A stretch of DNA of 64,000 bases, taken from NCBI GenBank assembly GCA_964561155.1, contig CAZLOI010000001.1:3958-67957 (forward strand), read 5' to 3'. Made by a program: the position numbers and the translations under genes. This DNA is from an uncultured Candidatus Saccharibacteria bacterium. Lineage in GTDB: Bacteria; Patescibacteriota; Dojkabacteria; J137. The notes beneath the pieces are model-generated. The model saw nothing but the letters and a program-made list of their open reading frames with translations, was not told where the DNA came from and searched no databases. This document shows, in pieces, positions 9,325 through 62,400 of the stretch (the stretch's first letter is position 1; every line of letters starts with the position of its first letter).

Positions 9325-9452
9325 ATATGGTTTATAACTACCGAATTATACCTTGTTCTTCTGCTAATTTGCTATTCTGTCTTTGAAATATTACAAAAGA
9401 CCTATTAATTAATGTTGTTGCCAAATATTGATACCTGCCAGTATAATTCGGC

Positions 9453-9812: not shown

Positions 9813-9988
9813 GGGAAACTAATTGGCTCTGTGAATGATATAGGAGAAAGCACATTTGGACTAGCTATCTGAATATCATTAAACTTCAAAGCAAAGAAAA
9901 GAATCATTAATACATTAATTCCCACTACGATAAGTCCAAAAGTCATTAATCCGTTTTTTCTAGTTGAGTTCATATATTCATTATACAC

Positions 9989-10036
9989 AAACACCGTCCC
10001 TCACGCACTCTTTTAAAAGTCTTTGGGACGGTGTTT
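9989..10036. terminator. 12-bp perfect inverted repeat (AAACACCGTCCC...GGGACGGTGTTT) with 24-nt loop containing a nested CTTTTAAAAG palindrome; probable terminator or structured RNA element downstream of the dsbA-like operon
   Basis: Left arm 9989-10000 and right arm 10025-10036 are exact reverse complements. The element is followed by TTTGGTT on the plus strand and sits 6 nt downstream of the stop of the minus-strand gene ending at 10043. Loop size is atypically large for an intrinsic terminator. Confidence 0.4.
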
Positions 10037-35680: not shown

Positions 35681-36454
35681 ATGCAGAACATGTTAAGAAT
35701 TGAGAATCTAAAAGTAAACTTAAGCGAAGGAGACAAAGAAATTCTTCATGGAATCAACCTAGATATTAACCCTGGTGAAATCGTAATTATCAATGGCAAG
35801 AATGGATCGGGAAAGAGCACGTTAGTTAATGCGATCATGGGGAATCCACAGTTTAAAGTAACTGAAGGAAAGGCAACTATTCTCAACGAATCTTTTGATG
35901 ACCATACTTTGAGTTTGATTGATGAAGAGTTTGAAAAAAGAAATGCTAAAACAAACGAAATAGAAATTGAGATTTCATCAATAGAACCAAACGAAAGATC
36001 ATTGGCAGGATTGTATCTTGCTAACCAATATCCAACAGAAATACCAGGAGTTGGGTTAACTCACTTCTTAAGACTTATCTACAATTCTCGAAGACCAAAG
36101 GATCAGCAACTTAACGTATACAAGTTTAAGCTTCTTCTTAAAGAAAAGTGTGAACTAATAAAATATCCTGAACACTTGCTAACAAGGAACCTTAATGAAG
36201 GTTTTAGTGGTGGTGAAAAGAAGAAGACAGAGATTCTTCAAATGCTAATTTTAGAACCTAGATATGTGATGCTTGATGAAGTAGATTCAGGTCTTGATAG
36301 GCAGTCTGTTAAAGATGTCTTTCAAGGATTGTCTGACTTTAAGAAAGTTCTTCCCAATACTGCTTTCCTAATCATTTCTCATTACGACAAAGTTCAGGAG
36401 TATATGAAACCTGACAGGACTGTGGAAATGAGCGAAGGGTTGATAGTTGGATAA
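35681..36454 (+). CDS. sufC: Fe-S cluster assembly ATPase SufC (with about 25-aa insertion)
   Basis: GKNGSGKSTLVNAIMGNPQFKVTEGKATILNE (SufC-specific GxPxYxVTxG), NQYPTEIPGV, and LLTRNLNEGFSGGEKKKTEILQMLILEPRYVMLDEVDSGLD align closely with E. coli SufC. AGGAG at 35666-35670 is 10 nt upstream of the ATG. No sufB/sufD/sufS is adjacent. Confidence 0.8.
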   Translation: MQNMLRIENLKVNLSEGDKEILHGINLDINPGEIVIINGKNGSGKSTLVNAIMGNPQFKVTEGKATILNESFDDHTLSLIDEEFEKRNAKTNEIEIEISSIEPNERSLAGLYLANQYPTEIPGVGLTHFLRLIYNSRRPKDQQLNVYKFKLLLKEKCELIKYPEHLLTRNLNEGFSGGEKKKTEILQMLILEPRYVMLDEVDSGLDRQSVKDVFQGLSDFKKVLPNTAFLIISHYDKVQEYMKPDRTVEMSEGLIVG

Positions 36455-43671: not shown

Positions 43672-44136
43672 TTATTCTACAGATCCTCCTGCTTTCTCAA
43701 TACTTTCCTTTGCCTTTGCTGATGTCTGTAAGTTCTTGATATTTATCTTTGTAGATATTTCTTTGTCGAACAATACTTTAATTCCTAAGTCTTTGTTGTA
43801 TCTTGGTGTGATTAATCCATATTCGATTAATACAGCAACATCGATATCTGTAATCTTATTCTCAGTAGCGATAGCTTCTAAGTCAGATAACTGAATAGGT
43901 TGATTGTTAACCTTGCTTGCAAAGTATGCTCTTGTGAATCCCTTTAGTTTAGGTAGTCTTCTTGAAATTGGGTTTTGTCCTCCTTCAAATCCTGGTCTTG
44001 GTTGCTTGTGTCCTCCTCTTGCTGTAGCTCCCTTTCCTCCTCTTCCAACTGTATGTCCTCCAACACCAGAAGCGTATCCTCTTCCTAATTTCTTAGATTT
44101 CTTAATTGTTTTTGGTGATGGTAAGTTATTAATCAT
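43672..44136 (-). CDS. rplO: 50S ribosomal protein L15
   Basis: KKLGRGYASGVGGHTVGRGGKGATARGGHKQPRPGFEGGQNPISRRLPKLKGF is the canonical L15 Gly/Arg-rich N-terminus. Confidence 0.9.
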   Translation of the reverse strand: MINNLPSPKTIKKSKKLGRGYASGVGGHTVGRGGKGATARGGHKQPRPGFEGGQNPISRRLPKLKGFTRAYFASKVNNQPIQLSDLEAIATENKITDIDVAVLIEYGLITPRYNKDLGIKVLFDKEISTKINIKNLQTSAKAKESIEKAGGSVE

Positions 44137-44140
44137 ATTC

Positions 44141-44725
44141 TTATAGTCTACTTGTTCTTAATAATGATAATGCCTGCACTGCTGCGTATGCATTAGTAAT
44201 CTTGTTGTCAGCTCCTAAGATCTTTCCTAAAATATCACTGATTCCAGCTGCTTCTGCAACAAGTCTAACTGAAGATCCTGCAATAATTCCAGTTCCTGGA
44301 TATGCTGGTTTCAATAGAACCTTTGATGCTTTGAATTTAGTTAGAACTTCATGAGGAATTGTATTTCCCTTTAGGTTTACGTGAATCATGTTCTTCTTTG
44401 CATTGTTTACAGCTTTTGTTTGTGCTGATCTAACATCATCTCCTTTTCCTAATCCTAGTCCTACCTTTCCTTTTCTATCTCCAACAACAACGAATACACT
44501 TAGTTTCATTCTTCTTCCTCCCTTATACATCTTTGTAACTCTATTTACATCGATAATCTTAATATCGAATGGATCTTGTTCTCTTGGTGCTCTTTCTCCT
44601 CTCTCTCTCTTCTTGAAAGGTCTTCTACCTCCTCTCTCTTCTTGAACAGGTGCTGGAGCTACTAATGCAGCTGCTGCTTTCTGATCTACTACTTCTTGTG
44701 TTTGTATTTCTTTACTGTTGTCCAT
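44141..44725 (-). CDS. rpsE: 30S ribosomal protein S5 (N-terminal Ala/Arg/Glu-rich extension)
   Basis: IDVNRVTKMYKGGRRMKLSVFVVVGDRKGKVGLGLGKGDDVRSAQTKA...AGSSVRLVAEAAGISDILGKILG. No rpmD (L30) ORF lies between rpsE and rplO (4-nt gap). Confidence 0.9.
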   Translation of the reverse strand: MDNSKEIQTQEVVDQKAAAALVAPAPVQEERGGRRPFKKRERGERAPREQDPFDIKIIDVNRVTKMYKGGRRMKLSVFVVVGDRKGKVGLGLGKGDDVRSAQTKAVNNAKKNMIHVNLKGNTIPHEVLTKFKASKVLLKPAYPGTGIIAGSSVRLVAEAAGISDILGKILGADNKITNAYAAVQALSLLRTSRL

Positions 44726-44731
44726 ATTGTA

Positions 44732-45082
44732 TTAAAGGTTAATTCCAGCTGATCTAATTCCGTCAGCAAGAGCTTTTACATTACCGTGATATTTGTATCC
44801 ACTTCTATCAAAAACTCCTTTATCAATTCCTAAATCTGATAATTTCTTACCGATTGTCTTTCCTACTTCAGTTGATCTTTCAACTCCATTCTTTCCTTTT
44901 ACTTCTGCATCACTCGCACTAGCTAATGTTACTCTTGTAACATCATCAACTGCTTGAACATAGATGTGCTTTGCAGATCTATATACAGTTAATCTAGGCT
45001 TCTCTGGAGATCCAGATACTGTCTTTCGAATGTGCATCTTTCTCTTTGTTTTGTTTATGTTTCTTCTTGCTTGTGTTTTCAT
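44732..45082 (-). CDS. rplR: 50S ribosomal protein L18
   Basis: RKTVSGSPEKPRLTVYRSAKHIYVQAVDDVTRVTLASAS. Confidence 0.9.
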   Translation of the reverse strand: MKTQARRNINKTKRKMHIRKTVSGSPEKPRLTVYRSAKHIYVQAVDDVTRVTLASASDAEVKGKNGVERSTEVGKTIGKKLSDLGIDKGVFDRSGYKYHGNVKALADGIRSAGINL

Positions 45083-45084
45083 AT

Positions 45085-45639
45085 TTATTTAGCTGACTTT
45101 GTTGATTTCTTCTTTACTCTTTCTCCCTTGTATCTAATTCCTTTTCCTTTGTATGGTTCTGGCTCTCTAAAACTTCTTATCTTAGCTGCAGCCTCTCCTA
45201 CCTTCTGTTTGTCATATCCTGATACTTTTATGTTTGTCTGTTCTTCAACTATTACATCTACTCCAACTGGTGGTTCATAGTTAATCTTGTGTGAGTAACC
45301 TAAGGATAAAACTAATTTTCTACCTTGTACTTCTGCTCTGTATCCAATTCCAACTATTTCTAGTGCTTTTGAATATCCTTCAGTTACACCTAATACCATG
45401 TTGTTTATCAATGTTCTGTACAATCCATGAAATGAATTATTCTGTTTGCTCTCGTCTGCAGGAGTCATCTTAACTACTCCATCTTCAACAACTGTGTTTA
45501 CTCCGTGTCTTACAGACTGAGTTAAACTTCCCTTTGGACCAGTTACAAATACTTCCTGGTGACCATAAGATCCTCCATTCTTTACTTCTACTGTTACTCC
45601 TTGTGGTATTGTTATTTCTAGTTTTCCAATTCTCGACAT
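45085..45639 (-). CDS. rplF: 50S ribosomal protein L6
   Basis: MSRIGKLEITIPQGVTVEVKNGG...VTGPKGSL, plus the duplicated L6 alpha/beta domains. 184 aa. Confidence 0.9.
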   Translation of the reverse strand: MSRIGKLEITIPQGVTVEVKNGGSYGHQEVFVTGPKGSLTQSVRHGVNTVVEDGVVKMTPADESKQNNSFHGLYRTLINNMVLGVTEGYSKALEIVGIGYRAEVQGRKLVLSLGYSHKINYEPPVGVDVIVEEQTNIKVSGYDKQKVGEAAAKIRSFREPEPYKGKGIRYKGERVKKKSTKSAK

Positions 45640-45640
45640 C

Positions 45641-46033
45641 TTAGAATATGTAACAAATGTATTCTCCTCCTACTTTAGTCTGTATTGCAGTCTTATCAGT
45701 AATCACTCCGCTTGGTGTTGAGAATATTGCTACTCCCATTCCGCTCATGATTGGTTTGATCTCTTTGTATCCTCTGTATTTTCTAATTCCAGGTTTTGAC
45801 ACTCTTACTAATTCTCTAATTGCAGATTCTCCATTTACGTATCTTAGTGTTAGATTCAAAGTACTTTGTGGCTTTGTTTCCTCTACATCGAAACTTTCAA
45901 TGAATCCTTGTTCCTTTAATATTTCACTAATTCTAACTAGCATTTTGCTAGAAGGCATAGAGACAGTTTCCTGCTTCTTTTGGATCGCATTTCTTATTCT
46001 TGTTAGGTAATCACCTATTGAGTCTCCGACCAT
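45641..46033 (-). CDS. rpsH: 30S ribosomal protein S8
   Basis: DSIGDYLTRIRNAIQKKQETVSMPSSKMLVRISEILKEQGFIESFDV. Confidence 0.9.
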   Translation of the reverse strand: MVGDSIGDYLTRIRNAIQKKQETVSMPSSKMLVRISEILKEQGFIESFDVEETKPQSTLNLTLRYVNGESAIRELVRVSKPGIRKYRGYKEIKPIMSGMGVAIFSTPSGVITDKTAIQTKVGGEYICYIF

Positions 46034-46042
46034 TTTTAAATA

Positions 46043-46255
46043 TTAAAAGCTATATTTCATAACACCTGGTAGTTCCCCAGCAAGTGCTTGTTTTCTAAAA
46101 CAGATCCTACACATCTTGAATTTTCTTACGTAACTTCTTGGTCTTCCACACACTGCACATCTGTGCTTCAATCTCACTTTTTTAAAATGAGTATTTCCAT
46201 TTTGGATCTTTTCCAAGTTCTTATTGTATTTTGCTATCGCTGCTTTGTTTGCCAT
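46043..46255 (-). CDS. rpsN: 30S ribosomal protein S14 type Z (zinc-ribbon form)
   Basis: 70 aa with [38 protein letters not shown] (C-x2-C...C-x2-C Zn ribbon). Confidence 0.85.
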
Positions 46256-46302
46256 AAAAACCTTTGAATTATATCGTTATACGCTATATTAATCAATTAA
46301 TA

Positions 46303-46854
46303 TTACTTTCTCCTTCTTTCGAAAGGCATTCCTAAAAGTTCAAGTAATTTGTAAGCTTGATCCTTGTTTGGTGCAGTTGTATTAACTACTACTTGCAATG
46401 ATCTAATCTTAACAAATGTTGATGTATCAATCTCTGGGAATATAGTATGTTCCTTTATTCCTAGAGTATATCCTCCCTTTGAATCAAATGATCTTCCAGA
46501 AACTCCTCTGAAGTCCTTAATTCTAGGTAGTGTTACATTTACTAATTTGTCAAAAAAGCTCCACATCTTCTCACCTCTTAGGGTTACCTTGATTCCGTTA
46601 GGAGTACCTTCTCTCAATTTAAAGTTTGAAATAGCCTCTGTTGAATGAACAACAATAGGTTTCTGTCCTGTAATCTGTGCAATAGTCTCACTCATCTCAT
46701 CTACAACTGCTGTGTTGTTCTTGAACTCAGATCCGATACCAGCATTCACTACAATCTTTTGAAGTGTAGGAATAGCCATAACGTTCTTAATTCCGAACTC
46801 TTCTTGCATTTTCTTTGCTATCTCTTTTTGGTATTTTGTTTTTAAGTCTGACAT
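46303..46854 (-). CDS. rplE: 50S ribosomal protein L5
   Basis: LKTKYQKEIAKKMQEEFGIKNVMAIPTLQKIVVNAGIG...RGMPFERRRK. Confidence 0.9.
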   Translation of the reverse strand: MSDLKTKYQKEIAKKMQEEFGIKNVMAIPTLQKIVVNAGIGSEFKNNTAVVDEMSETIAQITGQKPIVVHSTEAISNFKLREGTPNGIKVTLRGEKMWSFFDKLVNVTLPRIKDFRGVSGRSFDSKGGYTLGIKEHTIFPEIDTSTFVKIRSLQVVVNTTAPNKDQAYKLLELLGMPFERRRK

Positions 46855-46856
46855 TT

Positions 46857-47189
46857 TTATTTAATTAATTCTCCACTTTTTTTAAAATATCTGAATTTCT
46901 TTCCAGTCTTCTCATCAATCTTCAAACCTACTCTACTTGGAACTTTTGATTTAGGATCAATCAACATCACATTAGATGCATCGATTGGTTTTTCAATCTG
47001 AATGATTCCTCCCTCGATTCCTAAAGATGGGTTTGGCTTCTGAGCTTTCTTCACTATGTTAACACCTTTGATCAATACTTTAACCTGCTTTGTATCTTTA
47101 TCTACAATAACTGCTTCGATCTCTCCCTGCTTTCCAGCATCTTTTCCTCTCATTACTTGTACTTTGTCTCCTTTTATTAGTTTATTCAT
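46857..47189 (-). CDS. rplX: 50S ribosomal protein L24
   Basis: IKGDKVQVMRGKDAGKQGEIEAVIVDKDTKQVKVLIKGVNIVKK (KOW motif). Confidence 0.9.
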   Translation of the reverse strand: MNKLIKGDKVQVMRGKDAGKQGEIEAVIVDKDTKQVKVLIKGVNIVKKAQKPNPSLGIEGGIIQIEKPIDASNVMLIDPKSKVPSRVGLKIDEKTGKKFRYFKKSGELIK

Positions 47190-47190
47190 A

Positions 47191-47574
47191 TTAAAGAACC
47201 TCTGGTGCCATTGAAATAATCTTATTAAATCCTCTATCTTTTAACTCTCTAGCAATTGGTCCGAAGATTCTAGTTCCTTTTGGATCTTTAGTCTCCTTTA
47301 CAATTAAAGCTGCTGAGTTTTCGTCAAATTTAATATGAGAACCATCCTTTCGTCTCATTTCCTTCTTGCATCTAATTACAACTGCATGAACAACATCTCC
47401 TTTCTTGTAGTTTGAGTTTGGCATTACTTTCTTTACAGAAGCACTTACAATATCTCCAACATATCCGAACTTTGAGAATGTTCTTCCTTTCTTTCCTCCC
47501 AATACTTGGATTACCATAATTTCTTTGGCACCTGTATTGTCAGCTACTTTTAATCTAGATAATTTCTGTATCAT
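47191..47574 (-). CDS. rplN: 50S ribosomal protein L14
   Basis: [27 protein letters not shown]...[10 protein letters not shown]. Confidence 0.9.
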
Positions 47575-47827
47575 GTTTTTTAATCTTAACTAAAAATACC
47601 CAAGACTTTCTTGGTGAAAGCTTTCTTCCTTCTCCTATCTCAACAATGTCTCCTACTGCAACTTCCTTAGAATCTGCAATATCTACAACATAACTCTTAT
47701 GCTTTTTAACAGTCTTTCCATACTTAGGGTGAGCATACTTTGTTTCTACCCTTACCTTAATTGTATTAGGAGTAGATATTTTTGCTACCTTTCCAGTCAA
47801 TGTTTTCTTATTCTTATTATTTTCCAT
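47555..47827 (-). CDS. rpsQ: 30S ribosomal protein S17
   Basis: [45 protein letters not shown]. The 3' end overlaps rplN by 20 nt. Confidence 0.9.
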
Positions 47828-47990
47828 TTGCTTTTGTTAATAATCTAGCAATTTCCTTTCTTAGTAATTTAAGCTTTGCTGTATTCTTTTCTGCTCCCGT
47901 AACTACATCTAACTTTAGTCTAGTTAGTTCTTTTCTAAGATCTACCAAAGAATTTGATTCTGTTTTTGTTTCAACTGCTTTCTTTGCCAT
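47817..47990 (-). CDS. rpmC: 50S ribosomal protein L29 (57 aa; below ORF-track cutoff)
   Basis: The minus strand from ATG at 47990 reads [57 protein letters not shown], an L29-like helical hairpin in the conserved position between rplP and rpsQ. Its TAA overlaps the rpsQ start (AAUGGAAAAUAA). Confidence 0.75.
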   Translation of the reverse strand: MAKKAVETKTESNSLVDLRKELTRLKLDVVTGAEKNTAKLKLLRKEIARLLTKANGK

Positions 47991-47993
47991 ATC

Positions 47994-48410
47994 TTAAAAA
48001 GTTACTTGTTTGTCAATTATTCTAGTTTTTACAGAAATCTTTCTTGCTGCTCTCTCTAGCGCTTCTCTACATGTTGCTTCAGGTAAACCTCCTATTTCAA
48101 AAAGAACTAGTGCTGGTCTAACTACTGCTACAAAGTGATCTACAGGTCCCTTACCTCCTCCTCTAACAACTTCGTCACTCTTCTTTGTAACTGGTTTATG
48201 AGGGAAAATCTTAACCCATAGCTTTCCTTTTCTGTCTGTATAGTTTGCAACTGCCTTTCTTGCTGACTCAATTTCTCTTGAATGTACCCATCCTCTTTCA
48301 GTAGCTTGTAGACCGAAGTCTCCGTAAGCAACTTCTGATCCTCTTAATGAGATTCCGTTCATCTTTCCTCTGAATTCTTTGTTGTACTTTCTTTTCTTAG
48401 GTTGCAACAT
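47994..48410 (-). CDS. rplP: 50S ribosomal protein L16
   Basis: MLQPKKRKYNKEFRGKMNGISLRGSEVAYGDFGLQATERGWVHSREIESARKA...VKIFPHKPVTKK. Confidence 0.9.
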   Translation of the reverse strand: MLQPKKRKYNKEFRGKMNGISLRGSEVAYGDFGLQATERGWVHSREIESARKAVANYTDRKGKLWVKIFPHKPVTKKSDEVVRGGGKGPVDHFVAVVRPALVLFEIGGLPEATCREALERAARKISVKTRIIDKQVTF

Positions 48411-48415
48411 ATATT

Positions 48416-49072
48416 TTAGTCAATTGTGTATGTATTTTTCTCTCCTTTATTTATCCAAACCTTGATTCCGTGTTTTCCTGCTCTTGGTACTTGTGCTTCT
48501 ACATTTGCGTAGTCGATATCAGCTCTAATAGTGTGTCTTGGAACAAATCCCCAAGATACCTTTTCCTTTCTAGCCATATCAGCTCCCTTAATTCTTCCTC
48601 CTACCCAAATCGTTATTCCTTTAATCAAACCTGTTGCTTTTGCTGCGTCTGCTGCTTTCTGCATTGCCATCTTTGGTGCTACTCTTTTTTCACACTGTGC
48701 TGCAATGTTTTCTGCTACTAACTTTGCAATTGTATCAGGGTTCTTTACTTCAAATGGTTTAACTTCTACTGGTTGACCAACTAATTTTGTTAGTTCGTCT
48801 TTTAATGCAGTAATACCTGCACCGCTTCTTCCGATTACAACTCCTGGTCTAGCTACGAATAGCTCAACTACAATCTTGTTAATCATTCTCTTAATTACAA
48901 CAGATGCAACACCTGCTGACTTAAGCTTCTCGTTAACTAACTTCTTTATCTTTCGATCCATCAAAAATTTATCTGCATAAGTTTCCTTTGATGCATACCA
49001 TCTTGATGTCCAATTTTTGTTTACTCCAACTCTAAATCCTATTGGATTTACTTTGTGCGAACCTCTAGCCAT
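48416..49072 (-). CDS. rpsC: 30S ribosomal protein S3
   Basis: MARGSHKVNPIGFRVGVNKNWTSRWYASKETYADKFLMD, then KH domain, then VIGRSGAGITALKDEL. Confidence 0.9.
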   Translation of the reverse strand: MARGSHKVNPIGFRVGVNKNWTSRWYASKETYADKFLMDRKIKKLVNEKLKSAGVASVVIKRMINKIVVELFVARPGVVIGRSGAGITALKDELTKLVGQPVEVKPFEVKNPDTIAKLVAENIAAQCEKRVAPKMAMQKAADAAKATGLIKGITIWVGGRIKGADMARKEKVSWGFVPRHTIRADIDYANVEAQVPRAGKHGIKVWINKGEKNTYTID

Positions 49073-49126
49073 AAAAAAATACTTACAAAAGTATGTGTGA
49101 TTATATCATCTAAACACCATTATTTG

Positions 49127-49579
49127 CTACTCTGATTTACCTTTTACAGTAGCTTTTTTAACGCTCTTTTCAGCAGTAACTTTCTTCACTTTTTTAACAG
49201 ATTTTTCAGTAACTTCGTCATTCTTTTTTTCCTTTTTCTCAACTCTTTCGTCTGATACTACAACTAGTAGGTTTGTTACACCTCTATTCATCATAAAGTA
49301 TCCAGCTCCTTTTGCCTTTGGATGTCCCTTTCTTATTCTAATAGCACCTTTATCAACTCTTAATTCTTTAATGTATAAATCATTCAATGATGCACCTTTG
49401 CTTGAAGCATTTGCTGCTGCTGATTTCAACCCCTTGTATACATGTACTGCTGTTCCCTTGTTCATGAACTTAAGAACATTTAAAGCTTCGTAAACACTCA
49501 TACCCTTTACAACTTCTGCTGGTATTCGCATCTTCTTTGCTGATTTTCCTATGTTGTTTATTATTGCTTTAGCTTCCAT
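49127..49579 (-). CDS. rplV: 50S ribosomal protein L22 (Lys-rich C-terminal extension)
   Basis: AKKMRIPAEVVKGMSVYEALNVLKFMNKGTA...IKELRVDKGAIRIRKGHPKAKG, plus a VKKVKKVTAEKSVKKATVKGK tail. Confidence 0.9.
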   Translation of the reverse strand: MEAKAIINNIGKSAKKMRIPAEVVKGMSVYEALNVLKFMNKGTAVHVYKGLKSAAANASSKGASLNDLYIKELRVDKGAIRIRKGHPKAKGAGYFMMNRGVTNLLVVVSDERVEKKEKKNDEVTEKSVKKVKKVTAEKSVKKATVKGKSE

Positions 49580-49592
49580 ATGTTAGTTTTAA

Positions 49593-49883
49593 TTATTTTG
49601 CTCCAGGCGCTGCTGCAGCTATTTTACCTTTCTTACTATGTCCACTGAACTTTCTTGTAAAAGAAAACTCTCCTAACTTATGCCCAACCATTGATTCTGT
49701 AACGAATACTTTGTTGAAGTATTTTCCGTTATGAACTTCAAAGTTTAATCCCACCATTTCTGGAGAAATTGCTGAACTTCTTGACCATGTTTTAATTGTC
49801 TTGTTTCCACCGTTCTTTGCAGCGACTACCTTCTTCATTAAAGATTCTTCTACAAATGGTCCTTTCTTTAAACTTCTAGACAT
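49593..49883 (-). CDS. rpsS: 30S ribosomal protein S19
   Basis: [19 protein letters not shown]...[50 protein letters not shown]. Confidence 0.9.
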
Positions 49884-49888
49884 ATTTA

Positions 49889-50752
49889 TTAAATAATAGT
49901 TTTTGTTTTCTTAAATTTATTAGTTTCAGGTCTTCTTCTAATAATGAACTTACCTGTTGGATTCTTCATACTTCTTGTTCTCTTTCCGATTAGGTTACCC
50001 CATCTGTCTGATTTAGGTCCTCCAGTTCCGTGTCTACCTCCCTTTCCTTGTCCTCCAGCGTGAGGGTGTTTTGTAGACATAGCTACTCCTCTAACTGTTG
50101 GTCTTACTCCCTTAAGTCTCTTTCTTCCTGCCTTTCCTAGTTTTACATTCTTTTGGTCCATATTACTTACGAAACCAATTGATGCATAACAATCTTCTTT
50201 TACTAATCTCAATTCTCCACTTGGCATTTTCAATTGAACATATCCCTGGTCTCCTCCCATCACTTGTATTCTTGTTCCAGCTGATCTTGCAATGACTGCT
50301 CCTTCACTTGGGTACAACTCTACAGAGTGAACAAAAGTTCCCTGAGGTATATTCTTTAGCTTCATTCCATTTCCCAAAGATATTGGTGCAACATCTGAAT
50401 TTATAACCTTGTGACCAACCTTTAATCCGTCTGGTGCCAAGATATATTTTCTATCTCCATCAATGTATTTGATCAATGCAATAAATGCTGTTCTGTTTGG
50501 ATCGTATTCAATTGTTTCAACTGTTCCTGCTACTTCTTTCTTAGTTCTCTTGAAATCAATAATTCTATATGCTCTCTTAACGCCAGCTCCTTGGTGTCTC
50601 ATTGTTACTCTTCCTAGGTTATTTCTACCACCCTGACTTCTTAAATCAGTAGTCAATGGCTTATATGGACCTGTCTTTGTAAGCTCTGATCGATCAATCA
50701 GCACTGCATGTCTCACTCCTGCGCTTGTTGGTTTAAATTTCTTTAGTGCCAT
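49889..50752 (-). CDS. rplB: 50S ribosomal protein L2
   Basis: [15 protein letters not shown]...[28 protein letters not shown]...[20 protein letters not shown]. Confidence 0.9.
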
Positions 50753-50765
50753 ATATTAATATTAA

Positions 50766-51044
50766 TTACTTCTCTAATAAATCAAACTTATCGTTAGCTC
50801 CAAGCTTAAAGTACATGATCTTTCTATCCTTTAATTTGATAGCCTTACCAGATACTCTATCTCTTTTGTACTTTCCCATTCTACTTGTAGTCTTTACATC
50901 TACAATCTTCATTCCGTATGCTGCTTCAAATTCTTTCTTTGCACTAGTCTTGTTTGCATTTACATCTACTTCGAAAGCTACATATTTGTTAGCCTTGTAC
51001 TCGTTAATTGATTTTTCTGTTACAACTGGTTTTCTTAGTATCAT
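50766..51044 (-). CDS. rplW: 50S ribosomal protein L23
   Basis: MILRKPVVTEKSINEYKANKYVAFEVDVNANKTSAKKEFEAAYGMKIVDVKT. Confidence 0.9.
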   Translation of the reverse strand: MILRKPVVTEKSINEYKANKYVAFEVDVNANKTSAKKEFEAAYGMKIVDVKTTSRMGKYKRDRVSGKAIKLKDRKIMYFKLGANDKFDLLEK

Positions 51045-51661
51045 AAACTTCTTTCCTTAAGGTTATTTAATGCAGCCTCTTCAATGATCAAGTGACCAGA
51101 GTTTAAAAGATCGTAAACACTTACTTCTCCAACGAACATAATTCTTACATTCTGAATGTTTGAGAAAGCCTTTAGAGCATTCTGTTCTACATTCTCAGTA
51201 ATGATTGTTACCTTCTTTGGTGAATTAAATGATTCTAAAATCTTGTTAGCATCTTTAATTGAAGCCTCAACTGCTACCTTATCTACTACTGAAACTTTTC
51301 CAGCACTAAATACCTTAGCAAGAGCATTCTTTAAAGCTACTTTCTTAAACTTCTTATTCAAATCTCTACTCCAGTTAACATCACTTGAAGGTCCATGTGC
51401 TCTTCCTCCTCCTCTCCAAATTGGTGATCTTGATGATCCTGATCTTGCTCTACCTGTACCTTTTTGTGCCCATGGCTTCTTTCCTCCTCCTCTTACTTCT
51501 GCCTTAGTCTTTGTATTTGCATTTCCTTCTCTTTGATTTGAAAGATATACATATACATACTGAGACAATATTCTATCGTTTGGTTTAACATCAAATACTG
51601 CTTCGTCTAGTGTTATTTCCTTAAGCTTTTTGTTTTGTACTGTTACTAAATCTACTTTCAT
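51041..51661 (-). CDS. rplD: 50S ribosomal protein L4
   Basis: TKAEVRGGGKKPWAQKGTGRARSGSSRSPIWRGGGRAHGP. Confidence 0.9.
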   Translation of the reverse strand: MKVDLVTVQNKKLKEITLDEAVFDVKPNDRILSQYVYVYLSNQREGNANTKTKAEVRGGGKKPWAQKGTGRARSGSSRSPIWRGGGRAHGPSSDVNWSRDLNKKFKKVALKNALAKVFSAGKVSVVDKVAVEASIKDANKILESFNSPKKVTIITENVEQNALKAFSNIQNVRIMFVGEVSVYDLLNSGHLIIEEAALNNLKERSL

Positions 51662-51662
51662 A

Positions 51663-52268
51663 TTATCGAGACTTAATTATTGCGTAAGTACCTCTAGCAC
51701 CAGGAACTGATCCTCTTATTGCTAGTAGATTATTTACTGTATCTATATATTCAACTTGTAATCCTAAAACTGTCTTTGTTCTGTTTCCCATGTGTCCTCC
51801 CATCTTCTTTCCTTTGAATACTCTTCCAGGGATTGCTCTAGATCCTAAAGATCCAGGTGCTCTTTCTCTGTCAGAAGAACCGTGAGTTCTTGGCATTCCG
51901 TGGAATCCCCATCTCTTAACAACACCTTGAAAACCTTTTCCCTTTGTTACTCCAGTTACTGAAACCTGATCTCCTAATTCAAAAAGATCTGCTCCTAGCT
52001 TCTGTCCTGCTTCTACTGTTACATCTTCTTTAACTGTAAATGTTCCTTTAAATCTTGGAACAATGTTCAAAGCCTTGTATTTTCCTGTCTCTGCCTTTGT
52101 TCCCTTTCTCTTATTATCTTTTACTAATTCGTATTGATTCTTCTCTCCAACCTTAGCAGTCTTGCTTACGTAGTTCTCTGATACATCAAAGATAGTTACA
52201 GAAATAACTTCTCCGTTGTCTTTAAACACTTGTGTCATTCCAATTTTCTTTCCTAGGATTGCTTTCAT
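51663..52268 (-). CDS. rplC: 50S ribosomal protein L3
   Basis: MKAILGKKIGMTQVFKDNGEVISVTIFDV...GKGFQGVVKRWGFHGMPRTHGSSDRERAPGSLGS. Confidence 0.9.
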   Translation of the reverse strand: MKAILGKKIGMTQVFKDNGEVISVTIFDVSENYVSKTAKVGEKNQYELVKDNKRKGTKAETGKYKALNIVPRFKGTFTVKEDVTVEAGQKLGADLFELGDQVSVTGVTKGKGFQGVVKRWGFHGMPRTHGSSDRERAPGSLGSRAIPGRVFKGKKMGGHMGNRTKTVLGLQVEYIDTVNNLLAIRGSVPGARGTYAIIKSR

Positions 52269-52279
52269 AATAATCTTTA

Positions 52280-52582
52280 TTAACTTTTGATTTGAACCTC
52301 AATTCCTGCAGGAAGTTGCATATGAGAAAGTGATTCAATCGTCTTTACATTAAAATCAACTACATCTACTAATCTTGTGTGCTCAAATAACTTGAAATGC
52401 TCTTTAGACTTACCATCGATATGTGGACCTTTATGAATTGCCATACTCCATCTTTTTGTAGGAAGAGGAATAGGACCCTTTATCTTGGCACCTGTATCAA
52501 TTACAGCTTTTGCAATATCCATCGTTGCTTTATCAACAACTTTGAAGTCAAATCCTTTTATTTTAACTCTTATTTTTTGCAT
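52280..52582 (-). CDS. rpsJ: 30S ribosomal protein S10
   Basis: MQKIRVKIKGFDFKVVDKATMDIAKAVIDTGAKIKGPIPLPTKRWSMAIHKGPHIDGKSKEHFKLFEHTRLVDVVDFNVKTIESL. Confidence 0.9.
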   Translation of the reverse strand: MQKIRVKIKGFDFKVVDKATMDIAKAVIDTGAKIKGPIPLPTKRWSMAIHKGPHIDGKSKEHFKLFEHTRLVDVVDFNVKTIESLSHMQLPAGIEVQIKS

Positions 52583-52614
52583 TGTTTTTATTTAAAGATC
52601 TATCTTCTATTCTG

Positions 52615-52650
52615 CGCCTTCGATTATAGCAAACGAAGACCCGGAATAAA
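52615..52650 (-). promoter_or_regulatory. candidate S10-operon promoter immediately downstream of the tuf terminator
   Basis: The minus strand reads ...GGCTTTTATTCCGGGTCTTCGTTTGCTATAATCGAAGG.... TATAAT corresponds to plus 52623-52628, about 40 nt before the rpsJ ATG. The -35 is weak (TTATTC). Confidence 0.3.
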
Positions 52651-52679
52651 AGCCCCCTCTATGTTTTTTACATAGAGGG
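52640..52679 (-). terminator. intrinsic terminator downstream of tuf (9-bp stem CCCTCTATG/CATAGAGGG, 7-nt loop, then GGCUUUUAUU)
   Basis: Arms at 52655-52663 and 52671-52679 are exact complements. The U-rich tract lies on the minus-strand transcript (revcomp of 52640-52654). 17 nt after the tuf stop. Confidence 0.5.
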
Positions 52680-52695
52680 AGACTCTTATAAATCA

Positions 52696-53889
52696 TTAGC
52701 TTGCAATTGCGGTAATTACACCTGCTCCAACTGTTCTTCCTCCTTCTCTAATAGCGAAGGTCATCTTTTCTTCAAGAGCTACTTTAGTTCCCAATCTAAC
52801 TTCTGCTGTGATGTTATCACCTGGCATAACTAGTTGAGTTCCTTCAGACAAGATAACTTCTCCAGTTACGTCTGCAGTTCCAATATAGAACTGTGGTTTG
52901 TATCCAGATCCGAATCCTGTATGTCTTCCTCCTTCATCCTTTGATAGGATATAGATTTCAGCCTTGAATGCAGTGTGTGGTTTAATTGAACCCTTAGCTG
53001 CTAGAACCTGACCTCTTTCAATATCTTCTCTCTTGATACCTCTGATTAATAATCCAACGTTGTCTCCAGCCTGTCCTTCTGTCATCTGCTTCTTGAACAT
53101 CTCAACTCCTGTGATTGTTACCTCTTTAGCAGTTTCCATCAAACCGATCTGTTCTACAATGTCGTTAATCTTAACTTTTCCTCTTCCGATTCTACCTGTT
53201 GCAACTGTTCCTCTTCCTTCGATAGAGAATACATCTTCAACCTGCATTAAGAATGGTTTGTCGATCTCTCTTTCTGGCATTGGAATTGTTTCGTCCATAG
53301 CCTTTAATAGAGCCGCCATAGTCTCGTCTCCGTCCTTCTCTCCAGTTGTACCATACAATGCTGATCCAACTACAAATGGAACTTTGTCTGCTTCGTAACC
53401 ATATGTCTTCATTAGGTCTTTCATTTCTTCCTTAATCAATTCAAGAAGATCTGGGTCTGTATTGTCATCAAATCTATTGATGAATACAACCAAGTGCTTA
53501 ACTCCAACTTGATTAGCAAGAAGTAAATGCTCCTTTGTCTGAGGCATTGGTCCATCTGCTGCTGAAACTACAATAATTGCGCCGTCCATCTGAGCTGCTC
53601 CAGTGATCATATTCTTGATGTAGTCTTTATGTCCTGGACAGTCGATATGTGCGTAGTGTCTTACTTCAGATTCATATTCAACGTGTGAAGATGCAACTGT
53701 AACGATCTTGTTAGATCCTGCTCTTGCAATACCTCCCTTAGCGATATCAGAATAGGACTTGCCTGAATTCTGCCATCCCTTTCTCTGAGAGTATGATACT
53801 AAAGCAGCTGTTAAAGTTGTCTTTCCGTGGTCGATATGACCTAAAGTTCCGACATTTACATGTGGCTTTGATCTTACAAACTCTGCCAT
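52696..53889 (-). CDS. tuf: elongation factor Tu
   Basis: [23 protein letters not shown] (G1), DCPGHKDY (G3), NKFD (G4), full length 397 aa. Confidence 0.95.
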
Positions 53890-55157: not shown

Positions 55158-55793
55158 TCACATTTCTTTTTGAATCTGTTCCTGAGTAAATGTAAATGAC
55201 ATACCATCAGGATCAACAAGGAAATATTTCGCTACTTCTAACAAATCATCCTCATTCACAGTTTTCAATAATAGATCGCGTGCCAAATTATACTCAGACC
55301 ACCTTGGATCATCACTCTTCCAAGCTTTACATACTACCAATAGCCTAAGGTAGTTATCAAAAAGCTCTCTTTTACGCTTATACATATCGTTCGTACATCT
55401 TTTCATCCAGTACATAAGCCCCACTTCTGCACCATCATGATCCATATCTTGAAGGCTTGGTACATCTACAGGGAGACTAAATGTAATTTCACTTGAATTA
55501 GAAATGTATAGACTTCTAATTGTATGAATAACACTAGTTGGAATATGTGCGAGTACAAGGTTCTGAAAGCTCTCAGTCATTTCTTCAAAGCTACCTCTCA
55601 ACGAAACAAATAAGTATCTATCAAATAACTCAGTATTTTCAGAGTATGCTCTTTGACACTCATCTAAATGAAAGCTATCTACATATTGATTTCTTCCTTG
55701 GAACATTTCTAAAGCTTCTACATCGGGAAAACGATCGCAGCTAAAAGGATTAATGGGACTGGCTTGTACTAATTCGTCTTCAGGAATTGACAC
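55158..55793 (-). CDS. hypothetical cytoplasmic protein (start uncertain; track start is GTG)
   Basis: 211-aa ORF with no recognisable motif. The first in-frame ATG is at residue 30. Confidence 0.35.
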   Translation of the reverse strand: MSIPEDELVQASPINPFSCDRFPDVEALEMFQGRNQYVDSFHLDECQRAYSENTELFDRYLFVSLRGSFEEMTESFQNLVLAHIPTSVIHTIRSLYISNSSEITFSLPVDVPSLQDMDHDGAEVGLMYWMKRCTNDMYKRKRELFDNYLRLLVVCKAWKSDDPRWSEYNLARDLLLKTVNEDDLLEVAKYFLVDPDGMSFTFTQEQIQKEM

Positions 55794-55802
55794 TATATTT
55801 GG

Positions 55803-56309
55803 ATGTTAACAATACAATATTATATTCATAAATTCCTTTTTGGCAATGATATACTTATAGCTATGCAAAGCATTGAACTTAAACTTACAAATAGCGATCT
55901 CGATCTACATATCGACGAAGATACAGACATAGTTGCGAAGTATGATGGCAGAAGTAACTCAAACCTGAAAACAAAGATTAACTTTATCCATTCACATAGA
56001 AATATTAAATCTAGAATACTAATCAAGGCAGTATTGAAAGATTCATCGCGTTTTGATTTCGAAGGTGTATTAAAAATATTGAAAGGTGCGTCTGGTACCG
56101 ATACATATTTGAAGGTAGACTGTCTTATTCTTTCTGACAAAGCATATGCAAGAGCTGTACCTAGCCTTGAGATTAATGAGAATGATGTTAAAGGAGGTCA
56201 CGGTGCAACTATTGGACATATTGATTCTGAACAAATGTACTACCTAACTTCCAAGGGTTTAACTCCAAGCCAGGCCGAGAAAGAGATCGTAAAAGCCTTC
56301 CTAAAATAA
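55803..56309 (+). CDS. SufB/SufD-family C-terminal fragment protein (beta-helix end plus C-terminal helical domain only)
   Basis: IHSHRNIKSRILIKAVLKDSSRFDFEGVLKILKGASGTDTYLKVDCLILSDKAYARAVPSLEINENDVKGGHGATIGHIDSEQMYYLTSKGLTPSQAEKEIVKAFL aligns with E. coli SufD/SufB C-terminal about 110 residues (...[46 protein letters not shown]). Total length is only 148-168 aa versus 400+ for canonical SufB/D. A more plausible start is ATG 55863 (MQSIELKL), 7 nt after TATACT. Confidence 0.6.
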   Translation: MLTIQYYIHKFLFGNDILIAMQSIELKLTNSDLDLHIDEDTDIVAKYDGRSNSNLKTKINFIHSHRNIKSRILIKAVLKDSSRFDFEGVLKILKGASGTDTYLKVDCLILSDKAYARAVPSLEINENDVKGGHGATIGHIDSEQMYYLTSKGLTPSQAEKEIVKAFLK

Positions 56310-56493: not shown

Positions 56494-59400
56494 ATGGACA
56501 GAATATTCTCAAGGATCGGAATAGTATTAATAATCACACTGGTACTCGGAGGTTTATCATTAAACAATTCGGGCTCAGTTGCTGCTGATCCTATAGATCC
56601 GACACAGAGAATGTATTTAACAGATGAAATCCACGTGTCCTCTGGGCAATCTGAATCCTCACTTGCATCAGGATATTTAAGTTTTGCCGATGAGTATGGT
56701 TCACCTGGAGAGGATACAGGATATATCTTTGCACACTTGAATTGGACATATCCTACGAGCGGACCTGTAATAGCAGTTAATTCAGTTCCATCTGGATTCA
56801 CACTTGTTGATCAAACTTCATATAATTTAAATGTAAACGATACTGAGAATACAGACATAGAGTATGCCTTTGTGGCTGCTCTCTATGCGTATAACACTAA
56901 TACGTATGAAGATAATGTAAGTTTTGGATTCGACGGAGTATTTACTACAGCTAGTATGCGTGTCGTTCCAGTCGAAGGAGTAGATACTATGACTCCATAC
57001 GCTCCAGTTACTACTAACGGTACTACTGTTTCGCAACCTGAGACAGAGAATGGTGCGATTAGTACTCCTTTGGCCTTTGCTAGTGTTGCATATAACGATG
57101 GTATTGATTTCGCCCCTTGGTTTGAAACCACTGAAATCCCAACAAGTAATTACGACTGTTACCCATGTCAGTACAATGTAATCTATACGCAAACTGAAAC
57201 TGATGACACTGAAATGCCTCAGGTTTCTATCGAGGACTATTCTTTTCAGAGTGTCGATGCCCCTTATTCACAAATTGCTGTGCAATTAAATTTTGTAGAA
57301 TTCGGTACACCACAATTAACACTTGACTCTGCTACTCTTGAAGATTTCATGCTTGTAGGATCTGGTACGGCAACGACTAGTGGAGGTGCATTTATAGTTG
57401 ATGATCTGTTTTGTGATGTATGGGATCCAAACCTTAGTCAATACGTCAACATGTCAAACTGTGCTACTCCTGATGATGGAACATACGATTCAGCATTTGA
57501 AGTTTATGATATTAGTTTAGATATGACGGGTTCGGCTGCCGGAACATACAGTCTTGAGTTATTGTTTGATGAATATAATACAGCATCAGGAAATAGCAGT
57601 CCAACCCCGCTTGTAGAACTCGAAATTATTATGGATGAGTTTGGAGATGGTACAGTTGAGCTTCTAGGTGGTAGTGGGGTATTCGAAGTAGTTATCGATA
57701 CAGGACCAACAGTGGTTGGCAACGACGTAACAGTAACAGGACACGCTACATCTCAAGGAGGAGCGTACAATATATCTGATTTTGAATTTTACGTAAACGC
57801 TCAGTTTGTTGATATAAACGCTGAAGATGGATCATTTGATGAACCAATAGAAGAATTCACTTGGACTCTTAATGATCTAGCCGTCGGTAGCTATACACTA
57901 GAATTCTATGCATATGAATCTGATGGAGTTACAACAAATTGGACAATAGATTATGGAGGACCTGAAATTAGAACCTTTGACATACTACCTTCTGTCGTAC
58001 AGGTATCGCTAACTTCAGGACCAACTGTTGTTGGAAGAGAAGTTACAGTTGTTGGAGAAGCTACAGCAAGAGATCCTGCATGGCAAGTAACTGATGTTTT
58101 GTATGAAGTAAGAAATGCTTCTGGAGGTGCAGTTTATGCTTCTGGTTCAGTTCCTGCTACAGATGGAAACTATGATGGTGAACAAATAGAAAGTTTTACC
58201 TTTGTTCTTGACGATATACCTAACGGAGACTATTTACTGGATATTTGGGCTACAGAAGATGACTTTGGAGCAGGTACTGGTACTAGTGATGAACTAAATC
58301 TAAACTTTGAAATATTTATCGCCCCAGCTTTAGACTTTACTATAACTGGTCCTACAACGTCTGGAACAAGTAGTTACGTTCACTTCGAAGGTACATTAGA
58401 AGACACAGCTCCGTATAATATTGACAGAATATATTACACAGTAGAAAGTGGACCTGAAATAGATATACTTCCTGTTGATGGAGTATTTGATGAGTCTTTA
58501 GAAGAATTTGAAATTGATGCTGGTCCATTCTTTGATGGAACATTCAATGACATAAGGATCTATGGTGTAAATGAAATCAATTCAAGTATTCAGGAAACAT
58601 TCCTCAATACAACAGTAAACAATTCAAGTACAGCAGCAGACTGCGAACTAAGTAACCACGCAACTCCCACAAACGATACAACACCTACTCATACAGTTAC
58701 TTGTACTAGTCCAGACAACATAATTAAGATGGAATACAGAGTTGCTCAGGAAGTTGGAGTATTCCAAATACCTTGGACAGATATCCCACAGGGTTCCCTT
58801 TCAGCTGGTTCTTACGGATCTACATCTGTAACAGCAAGTATTACAACTTCTGCTATTCCTGATGGAAACACATCATTTGTAATTAATGCATATACAGGTA
58901 CAGGTAAATTCCATACAAATGAACCGGAAAACTTTCAAACAGGTGTAGCACCTGCACCTTACGATGTATTTGTTGTTGAAGCTACAGACAATAGTGCACC
59001 TACTATCAAACTAAACCCAATACTGCCTAATCCAGTGACATCAACAGCACCATTTATAACTGGAAGCTGTCAGGATGTTCACCCATTTGATACAAACTCA
59101 AATATTGCGACATTGCAGTATAGAATTGATGGTGGAAGTTGGACAACTATTCCTCCACTAAATGCACCTTTAGATACACCTATTGAATACTTTAGTTACC
59201 AATTACCAGAATTAGCAATTGATACATATGTATTAGATGTTAGATGTATTGACTCCGCAGGAAGGGATACAAACGCTCTAGGTGGAAATCAAACACTAAA
59301 CTTTGAAATAATAGCCCAGCCGGATGTTGAACCTGAGGAAGTTATTATTGTAGAAAACTTTACAGATGATAGTTTAAATTCTATCAATGAAACAACAGCT

Positions 59401-62400
59401 ATCTGGGGTAATGGATATATTAGACTAAAGGAAGAGATAGACTTTGATAAGACTTTAATCGACTCTGATGGTTTCGTTGATAGATACGGTTCCGTATTCT
59501 CCGATGAATTCCCATTAGCTGGAAGTGGAGATAACGTATGGTATGCAGTGGACTATGGAGTAAATAACTACGGATTAAAAAGATACAACACACTATCTAC
59601 TGCCATTACTGAGTATCAGAACATTTCTACATCCAGGTTAATAGATGTTGAGCCATTCTCACATGGAGGCATAGACTACGTTCTTGTTACACACGGAGGT
59701 GGACTTGCATTATTGCGAGTAGATACTGAAGCTCTGACAAATGTAACTTACGGTGGTTTACCAACAGCATTCTATCAGCCTAGAGGAATATATAGAGATA
59801 CTAGAAATGCAAACCTTGGATTCTATATTGGGAACGCGGTAACACTTGGAGGAACTGCAAATACATACTACTTAGACCTAAACGGTACTCCTACAACACT
59901 TGGTGATGATACATTTACTTGGTATACAACATCTCCAGGATTCGAACTTGATAATGTTGTTAGATCAGTTCTTGATACAACAAACAATGTACTGTACCTT
60001 GCTCAGTTTGGAGATGGATTGATTAGAATTGACGATGGTGGAACTCCTCTAAACTTAGGTGATGACACTAGAACGTTATTTGATTTCAATGACTTTGCTG
60101 ATGCAAGTACTATCTCAGGACTTGTTGTTGACCCTGCAGACGATGGTCTATTCATTACAACTCATTTAAATCAATCTAGACTATTCTACCTTGATGCAAA
60201 TGGGACACCTTTAAACGGTGCTGACGATACAGTTACTCAACTTGCAGATACATTAGACTTACTACAACAAAGAATTGATAACCTAGTATTCGTTGAAGGT
60301 CCTGAATATGTTGGAGGACAACTGTTCATGATGACTAGAACTGGAAAGCTATTCTACTACAATACAAACGGTACATATAGCCAAGCATCTGACGATACAG
60401 AAATACTTTGGGAAACAAATGAAGGATTATTCCCAGAATACATCTCTGATATCTATGTAGCTGACTACAACACAGTGTATGGAAACTTCCAGCATACTGG
60501 TATGTCTAGAATTGATCTAAACAGAAGTTGGGAGGATACAGGAGATGCTGTAACTATCTCAATTCCACCTGAAGTTAGACTTATTGTTAACAACATTAAC
60601 CTAGAAGACGTGCTTGTTGGTCCACTTCTTGAAGACGTAGATGGATTACAGGAACCTAATAGTGAATCAGTTGGAGTTCAGTATTTTGTCTCAATTGACG
60701 ATGGTGTTACATATGACGAATTAACAGTTGGAGAACTTAAGACAGTTCTTGAAGAAGACTATAGATTGAAACTAAAGATCACTCTTACAAAGATTGGTTT
60801 AAATAGTAAGACACCAATTATCGAAGGATTTACTCTTGCCTATGGGGCATACGAAGGCCCTATAGCACCTGAAGATGTTGATAGTTTAGACATTGTAGTC
60901 TCTCCTACTACATTCAATACAGATACCAACTTCAATATAACAGTACGAGCTTTGGATATTCTAGGTTTCCCAGTAGCTAGTGTAGATGATGTAGGTTCTA
61001 TGCAATTAAAAGACTTTGTTACAGATGCGAATGTTGATGCATTAACACCAATAACTCTAGACTTTAATGATGGTGTAGCTACAATTACAACTGCACAAAT
61101 TAGCCAGGCGGGATCTTACAAGATTACTGCTACTCACGGAGCAGAATCAGTAGATTCAGTTCAGCTAACAGTAAATCAAGGACCACTTCCAGACCCAGAT
61201 CCAGAGCCTGGAATAACTCATACATTATCATTCTTTACAGATACTCCTACAATTCAAAAAGGAAACGCAGCAATCCTTACATGGAATACAACAAATACTG
61301 TATCAGCAACCATTCAAGGATATGGTTCAGTTCCTGTAAATGGAAACTTGTCTGTGTCACCTGAAGTAACAACTACATACTACATAACAGCATTTGATGC
61401 AGAGGGAGATACATTAACCGCATCACTTACTATTACTGTTGTAGATGGTGTTGGAAGTCAGACACCTGTTTCAACTCCACTAGATGATGAAGGGAATCCT
61501 ATTCCACTAGAACTAATCGTTCCTGATGATTACATTGAAGTCTTAATAGGTAACCCAGTTACAATCACATGGACTACTGAAGGTAATCCAGACAGTGTTT
61601 ATATCGACTATCTTGGAAGAAACGCAACTAGCTCAGGAAGCTTTGAGTTCTACCCAGATCGAGACATTGTAATTACAATTACTGCTACAAGAGGAGGTGA
61701 AACTATTACCAGAACAATAACTATTAGAGTTATCGATGGATTACCAAATCCATATACACCTGCTCTAGTTGCTGCTACTGGTATCTTATTAACTAGCTTA
61801 ATGACTGGCGGAATTGCACAGTACTTCTCATTGTTCCTAGGATTAGTATTATTCAGAAAAAGAAGATACTGGGGTGTTGTTTACAATGCTTCGAAGTACC
61901 TACCTATTCCATTCGTAACAGTACGTGTGTACAAAGTTACAATGAAAGCAAAGGAATATGTAGCTCAAACTGTTACAGACCTTGAAGGTAAGTATGGAAT
62001 TCCTGTTGGAATTGAAGGTGAATATCAGGTTGAATTCATTCACGATGGATATAGAACTGAAGTTAAGAACCTTTCTATTCAACAGAACTCAGACATCATT
62101 CTAGATGTTGGTATGATCGAACTAGATACTGAAGGTATGCCATTAAGTAGCAAGATTAAGATATTCTTTAAAGAGAATTCCCCTACAATCATGCAGTGGT
62201 TAAGAGTTGCAATCATTGCCTTAATGCTTGTTGGTGCATACATTACTCTACAGGTAATAAGTCTATCACCTCTAGCTATTAACTATATTGTTCTTGTACT
62301 CTACGCTGTTGCAATAGTTACTCAAACTATTGTTCTCTTGAGTCCATACATTAATGTTAAGCGAGGTAAGGTTGTTGAGATTTCTTCTAAGAGACCTGTT

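Follow-up and report, generated by a model that had tools for sequence, protein, structure and literature searches.

Of the subunits that make up SufBC2D, a scaffold of iron-sulfur (Fe-S) cluster assembly, SufD is the one least understood. In Escherichia coli, where the protein has 423 amino acids (aa; PDB 1VH4, 2ZU0, 5AWF), SufC docks on SufD's C-terminal helical domain (PMC5571166, Yuda et al. 2017; PMC12442378), and SufD H360 sits with SufB C405 and E434 at the SufB-SufD interface, where the core ends C-terminally (PMC5571166, PMC12442378), H360 being the sole critical SufD residue in this organism (PMC5571166). A naturally shortened protein of the SufBD family, SmsB of M. jannaschii (MJ0034, 316 aa; PDB 9H78, 9H7Y), resembles SufB and forms a homodimeric scaffold; its partner is an ATPase of the SufC type, and it is used without SufD or SufS. 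In this work we analyse a stretch of 64,000 nucleotides (hereafter the window, that is, the whole stretch at its full length) of contig CAZLOI010000001.1 from an uncultured Candidatus Saccharibacteria bacterium of GTDB lineage Dojkabacteria. The window carries two suf genes that stand apart: a divergent sufC (35681..36454, + strand) and, 19 kb away, mini-sufD, which lies within the open reading frame (ORF) at 55803-56309 (+). Our sequence comparisons identify the product of the latter, mini-SufD, as a naturally shortened SufD under selection, of the short type typical of Patescibacteria.

The short SufD protein and its family

In the ORF map of the window, the ORF at 55803-56309 encodes 168 aa on the plus strand, and a check of profile coverage supports its assignment, in a preliminary description of the locus, as a C-terminal-only SufB/D protein. 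It matches PF01458 (SUFBD_core) at E=3.8e-36 and 125.1 bits (gathering threshold 27), with the alignment confined to ORF residues 43-166 and profile positions 109-232 (of 232), in the core's C-terminal half. The matched length had been put at about 110 residues and is in fact ~125-148; the GGHGATIG motif had been recognised correctly. By each score the protein is nearer to SufD than to SufB, both against the family models (131.6 bits for TIGR01981, SufD, over model positions 134-260 of 275; 77 bits for TIGR01980, SufB) and against PDB sequences (SufD 90 bits, SufB 53 bits). It remains under the equivalog cut-offs of both models because the C-terminal part alone is present, and with NF052511 (SmsB) it reaches 44.6 bits against a cut-off of 650. 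A profile of the mini-SufD family aligns to residues 269-394 of the 423 of E. coli SufD, at ~30% identity, and to residues 349-468 of the 495 of E. coli SufB, and hhalign pairs mini-SufD with residues 333-467 of 487 of a SufB from the candidate phyla radiation (CPR) at a probability of 99.6%.

The coding sequence (55863..56309, + strand; 148 aa and a stop codon, counted from the probable start discussed below) covers roughly three SufBD beta-helix turns and, after them, a pair of C-terminal helices. It contains the motif VKGGHGAT, and the invariant histidine, H113 of the 148-aa form (codon 56199..56201, +), aligns with E. coli SufD H360 and SufB H433. The two helices (56226..56303, +; residues 122-130 and 135-147 of the predicted structure) align to E. 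coli SufD residues ~369-394 and form the segment most similar to SufD and SufB; by this similarity they would be the element on which SufC docks. The helix segment DxEQxxYLxSRG is likewise conserved between E. coli SufD and mini-SufD. An AlphaFold2 model built on an alignment of 40 family members (predicted local distance difference test, pLDDT, 97; predicted template modelling score, pTM, 0.88) consists of nine beta-strands, or about three beta-helix turns, and then two helices. Foldseek comparison of this model with the PDB returns E. coli SufD (5AWF_B, 2ZU0) and SufB (5AWF_A) as the best matches, with TM(query) values of 0.8-0.84; SmsB is far weaker, and the remaining matches are noise.

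Canonical SufD proteins have 345-445 aa and a three-domain architecture, in which a long beta-helix core has a helical domain at each end. In mini-SufD, with 148 aa, everything that corresponds to E. coli residues 1 to ~247 is missing, both the helical domain at the N-terminus and the first two-thirds of the beta-helix. What appears to be retained, judging from alignment and model, are the SufD parts with a known role, namely the end of the beta-helix with the H360-equivalent histidine and the first C-terminal helices; no essential SufD residue is known in the parts that have been lost. It had been argued earlier that a SufBC2D complex needs full-length SufB/D beta-helices for the SufC interface, a premise contradicted by the docking of SufC on the C-terminal helical domain (PMC5571166). 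With SufB (495 aa in E. coli, 442-497 aa in CPR bacteria) mini-SufD shares the homologous C-terminal core and the histidine column. It differs in having no region A, where SufB has its sulfur tunnel and C254, the acceptor of the persulfide, and in having Val in the column of C405 and Gly in that of E434. The resemblance to SmsB lies in natural shortening, in the association with a SufC-type ATPase and in a distant similarity of sequence and fold; SmsB is nevertheless twice as long.

The short form is widespread and constant. A word-indexed protein search yielded 40 clusters of homologous proteins, all of 144-179 aa and with 47-93% identity, and a scan in which each GTDB species was represented by one genome yielded 50 loci, each with a matching ORF of 148-214 aa; identity within the family falls as low as 37%. 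Most of the 50 loci are titled Dojkabacteria, Levyibacteriota, Microgenomates, Paceibacterota or "Patescibacteria group", and the relatives found appear to be all, or nearly all, Patescibacteria. In a survey of lengths for which HMMER was run over all 1.84 billion representatives (50% identity), ~130 of the best 150 matches were shorter than 260 aa, with full-length SufDs (345-445 aa) occurring sporadically among them. Twenty columns of the 40-sequence alignment are invariant, the VKGGHGAT motif among them, and the histidine aligned with SufD H360 is present in all 40 clusters and in all 55 mini-SufD sequences taken from loci. Between the window and the closely related locus L143, whose mini-SufD is 93% identical, the ratio of nonsynonymous to synonymous substitution rates (dN/dS) of the 148-codon core is 0.093 at a dS of 0.34, comparable with that of EF-Tu, which is 0.084 between these two, and indicates purifying selection on mini-sufD in the immediate lineage of the window.

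Such proteins are already labelled "SufD family" by annotation pipelines, and full-text literature searches returned no account in which Patescibacteria normally have a SufD of one-third length. The family may be viewed as an evolutionary deletion experiment on SufD, showing which third of the protein is needed; the prediction that follows is that SufD can dispense with its N-terminal helical domain and with most of its beta-helix. At 148 aa and with a confidently predicted fold, mini-SufD also offers a small target for the analysis of how SufC is coupled to the SufB-SufD interface. Mini-SufD and the divergent SufC described below score close to equivalog cut-offs or under them, and genomes of this kind could be recorded in error by automated surveys as having no SufD or no SufC.

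The suf operon in relatives and its dispersal

In relatives, and not in the window, mini-SufD is encoded together with full-length sufB, sufC and sufS, as is the case for canonical SufD. The order sufC-sufB-mini-sufD-sufS-sufU, with a SufB of 442-497 aa, is found in 25 loci, and a further 11, several of them ended by the contig, have a full-length SufB within 10 kb, so that at least 36 loci combine the two proteins, SufB usually lying directly upstream. This operon order assigns mini-SufD to the SufD slot of a five-gene SUF system with SufU, and it answers the earlier suggestion that a full-length sufB elsewhere in the genome would reduce the short gene to a pseudogene, which framed the matter wrongly: in these relatives the short SufD and a full-length SufB occur side by side. 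The gene order of the suf operon of Bacillus subtilis is sufCDSUB. The Patescibacteria operon has the same five components as this type of system with SufU, also without SufE or SufA in the operon, and differs in the order of its genes, in a SufD of about one-third the usual length and, in the clade of the window, in being dispersed. The separate full-length SufB, SufS and SufU of the relatives distinguish the CPR system from that of SmsB. On the grounds of operon position in relatives and best similarity, we identify mini-SufD as a SufD orthologue, and as neither SufB nor SmsB.

A neighbour-joining (NJ) tree of mini-SufD sequences, computed without bootstrap, arranges the loci in three grades. 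The first contains the intact operons (most Dojkabacteria, Levyibacteriota, Microgenomates and others). The second (L002, L003, L020, L028) has sufC-sufB and mini-sufD-sufS-(170-aa gene)-sufU as two blocks 5-7 kb apart; L062, a contig without mini-SufD, was assigned to it by gene order only. The third grade, sister of the second, is one group, characterised by a mini-sufD that stands alone, and comprises the window, L001/L008, L006-L017 and L029; L143 has the same arrangement. All members of the sister clade, L062 included, keep SufB, with SufS in L002, L020 and L028 and SufU in L002 and L028, and in L062 a ferredoxin gene lies beside sufC. The contexts of the proteins P0117, P0157 and P0099, the last of them a sister-clade SufB, are intact or sister-type operons, distinct from the stand-alone clade.

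In the window, sufC and mini-sufD are separated by a cluster of ribosomal-protein genes and EF-Tu (43672..53889, - strand, in the ORF map), and the order ribosomal proteins, EF-Tu, VanY, mini-SufD recurs in L001 and L143. The two suf genes flank this SecY/ribosomal-protein/EF-Tu cluster at a distance of 19 kb in the window and of ~30-31 kb in AP024679.1 and OY969472.1. Since the split between sufC and mini-sufD recurs across the stand-alone clade, the fragmentation is an old, conserved rearrangement. The comparison of loci thus identifies the ancestral sufC-sufB-sufD-sufS-sufU operon as dispersed, not decayed, in the Dojkabacteria-like subclade of the window, and gives no support to the earlier picture of a decaying or incomplete "fragmented" system.

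The sufC gene had been described as intact, stand-alone, furnished with an insertion and located about 19 kb from mini-sufD, and on all these points our results agree. Its product scores 231.5 bits against the TIGR01978 cut-off of 212.8, in two stretches owing to the insertion, and an alignment of SufC proteins shows that it has kept Walker A, signature, Walker B and H-loop motifs in intact form. The insertion, of ~30 aa, follows the strand after Walker A and precedes the Q-loop region, and the last ~20 residues of canonical SufC are absent; both features are shared by L062 of the sister clade. Orthologues of sufC stand alone in AP024679.1, OY969472.1 and one Logan contig, and SecY, RecO and PheT adjoin sufC in L059-L061 as they do in the window.

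The same pattern of sharing holds for mini-SufD. The short C-terminal tail of other Patescibacteria mini-SufDs has been lost in the clade of the window, and this short form is common to L002, L003, L020 and L028. A clade-specific cysteine, C87 of the 148-aa form (codon 56121..56123, +), falls two residues past the SufB C405 column in the hhalign alignment of CPR SufB with mini-SufD and has no counterpart in canonical SufD; it is found in all members of the stand-alone clade, in the sister loci L002, L020 and L028 and in L058, and is missing from L003 and the other aligned loci. We considered this residue as a signature of SufB replacement and rejected the idea, since it also occurs in loci that hold SufB. 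Short form, cysteine and SufC changes are all shared with SufB-holding sister loci, and these oddities of the window clade therefore do not imply a SufB-free system or an altered function.

Several observations concern the genes around sufC and the suf loci of relatives. A number of SufC orthologues are named only "ABC transporter ATP-binding protein" by NCBI. In every stand-alone-clade genome examined, sufC is followed by a gene for a protein of ~420-440 aa (36589-37845, +, in the window; L059 10865-12154; L060 10900-12216; L061 11493-12755), which has no Pfam or NCBIfam match, shows on inspection one hydrophobic segment near its N-terminus and no Cys, and occupies the place held by sufB in intact operons. 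As a degenerate SufB this protein was rejected, the hhalign probability being 0.2%. On the other side, and divergent from sufC, a 524-aa protein (34055-35629, -) gives a sub-threshold match to CofD (2-phospho-L-lactate transferase-like), and L061 has a counterpart of 512 aa upstream of its sufC. Between sufS and sufU, L002 (12799-13311), L020 (9438-10028), L028 (10712-11524) and L052 (6973-7548) encode a protein of 170-270 aa without a Pfam match, which in the sister clade may be a lineage-specific SUF accessory component. Several Dojkabacteria SufBs have 643-867 aa and contain intein and LAGLIDADG homing-endonuclease domains (PF14890, PF14528; L019 5510-8002 and P0041, P0053, P0056, P0058, P0065, P0078, P0094, P0114), and in candidate division WS6 bacterium OLB20 (L024) sufB is split into two overlapping ORFs (8514-10004 and 9715-9975; 496 and 86 aa) by a frameshift, which reflects an error of sequencing or else disruption of the gene.

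Labels of source organisms also call for caution. Several third-party annotation (TPA) metagenome-assembled genomes are titled "uncultured Gammaproteobacteria bacterium" (L036, L037, L039, L040, L049) or "Candidatus Saccharibacteria" (L006, L009-L011, L015 and others). They carry Patescibacteria-type sufC-sufB-mini-sufD-sufS-sufU operons, and because their mini-SufDs cluster with those of Levyibacteriota/Microgenomates or of Dojkabacteria, these labels look unreliable and are probably mistaken.

Explanations for a stand-alone mini-SufD

We favour the interpretation that mini-SufD is a natural, minimal SufD of 148 aa acting in a SufBC2D-like scaffold whose SufB is encoded elsewhere in the genome, and assign it a probability of about 0.72-0.8, by reason of phylogenetic bracketing and of the invariant interface histidine. 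Under this interpretation mini-SufD would pair edge-to-edge with a full-length SufB and recruit one of two SufC ATPases, and ATP-driven dimerisation of SufC would open the SufB/mini-SufD interface for cluster assembly, with SufS and SufU supplying the sulfur; sufB, sufS and sufU would presumably lie elsewhere in the genomes of the window subclade. The preliminary description had wavered between a non-canonical partner of SufC and a remnant, and the first of these comes much closer. That the gene is a functionless 3' end of sufD or sufB, surviving a deletion or rearrangement, is very improbable, and the data on selection and conservation lead us to reject it. Such a view might appeal to the presence of only the C-terminal ~35% of a canonical SufD, to the failed equivalog cut-off and to the scattering of the suf genes; it would also have to accommodate a dN/dS on a par with that of EF-Tu, a length and a start that are constant over 40 clusters and 50 species down to 37% identity, invariant motifs, a compact fold predicted with confidence, and upstream DNA that holds a conserved gene on the opposite strand (dN/dS 0.12) instead of a decayed sufD. 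Still harder to credit is an artefact in which a wrong start, a frameshift, another genetic code or an assembly break conceals a full-length gene. The ORF start at 55803 is indeed probably off by 20 codons; for the rest, no plus-strand ORF of at least 50 aa with SufBD similarity was found upstream, tblastn matches to SufB cover 55953-56306 only, code 11 yields long intact ORFs, one of them of 2047 aa, in this window of 35.9% G+C, and independent assemblies, closed chromosomes included, present the same gene structure.

Several results nonetheless weigh against a canonical role beside a distant SufB. The protein fails the NCBIfam SufD equivalog cut-off (131.6 vs 222 bits), and it does not have the final ~29 residues of E. 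coli SufD's C-terminal helical domain; with this tail and the C-terminus of SufC itself both missing, docking of SufC in the canonical mode is not guaranteed. Homologues of SufB, SufS and SufU were not found in the 64 kb window (blastp, tblastn and, for large ORFs other than those of the ribosomal-protein block, Pfam scans), so that the earlier statement that sufB and sufS are not nearby holds, nor, even as fragments, by tblastn in ~384 kb of stand-alone-clade loci, where only mini-SufD itself was matched. A profile built from 12 SufBs of Dojkabacteria and the sister clade gave 8000 candidates, and among the best 120 of these none lay on the large clade contigs that carry SufC or mini-SufD (462563, 817811, 299293, 1140724 and 862240 bp). 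Intact-operon Dojkabacteria contigs are among these 120, and stand-alone-clade SufCs do occur in the same database, which suggests that the SufB of the stand-alone clade is divergent, truncated or absent. A metagenome scan with the sister-clade SufB P0099 gave 80 loci, none of them on the 1,149,470-bp contig of the Joint Genome Institute (JGI) that carries a clade SufC. Finally, no recognisable Fe-S client was seen among the Pfam-annotated genes of the window, L001, L059-L061 and L143, or in a cysteine-motif scan of 18 stand-alone-clade loci; the uracil-DNA glycosylase (UDG) of the window is of family 1 (Ung), which is not known to carry an Fe-S cluster.

These negative results are what would be expected if the subclade had lost SufB, SufS and SufU and if SufC2-(mini-SufD)2 served as a very small Fe-S scaffold or in another role, such as iron handling, an alternative that we regard as unlikely and as the most serious of those considered. 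In its scaffold variant, each protomer would contribute the conserved histidine and the clade-specific cysteine, and sulfide would be the source of sulfur, as in SMS. The alternative draws on the lack of SufB, SufS and SufU in any clade locus examined, including at the level of pseudogenes by tblastn, on the missing SufB matches and Fe-S clients, and on the fact that SufC and mini-SufD are both divergent and C-terminally shortened; E. coli SufC2D2 complexes exist (PDB 2zu0; PMC12442378), and SufBC-only SMS systems are able to use sulfide (PMC12192291). The sample, however, amounts to ~20-64 kb of each stand-alone-clade genome of ~0.9-1.2 Mb, always the same two neighbourhoods, and the best 120 of 8000 candidates would miss a divergent or shortened SufB. 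Every peculiarity of SufC and mini-SufD is shared with sister loci that hold SufB, the interface histidine is still invariant, and SufD alone is not known to assemble clusters. Were the subclade truly without SufB, it would possess a new minimal system, its SufC-(mini-SufD) module of ~400 residues in total being either the smallest Fe-S scaffold known or a SufCD unit with a function outside Fe-S assembly.

Start codon and neighbouring genes

The start of mini-sufD is probably the ATG at 55863, which gives 148 aa and lies 20 codons inside the ORF start at 55803. All homologues align from the methionine at ORF residue 21, and in L006, L010-L012, L016 and L017 the ORF itself begins at the equivalent of this residue, so that the 20-codon extension does not exist there. 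Compared with L143, the extension shows three nonsynonymous differences and no synonymous ones. The in-frame segment (55803..55862, +), absent from homologues and part of a divergent promoter region shared with a 211-aa gene, is thus probably untranslated. On its minus strand it contains TTGCCA-16-TATAAT (55846->55819), an 11/12 sigma-70-like match directed toward the divergent gene; such matches are no commoner in this region than in shuffled sequence, and this one lends at most slight weight to the start at 55863.

The divergent gene itself (55158-55793, -; 211 aa) lies between VanY and mini-sufD and has no family match. L143 has this gene; L001, a Dojkabacteria locus in which VanY and mini-sufD adjoin each other, does not. 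Its dN/dS of 0.12 indicates a real, lineage-specific gene. On the other side of mini-sufD, 56494-62637 (+) encodes a predicted surface protein of 2047 aa, with an N-terminal signal or anchor, many repeated immunoglobulin (Ig)-like stretches, one CarboxypepD_reg domain and C-terminal hydrophobic segments; its L143 orthologue has 1768 aa, and the length of this protein is therefore variable among close relatives.

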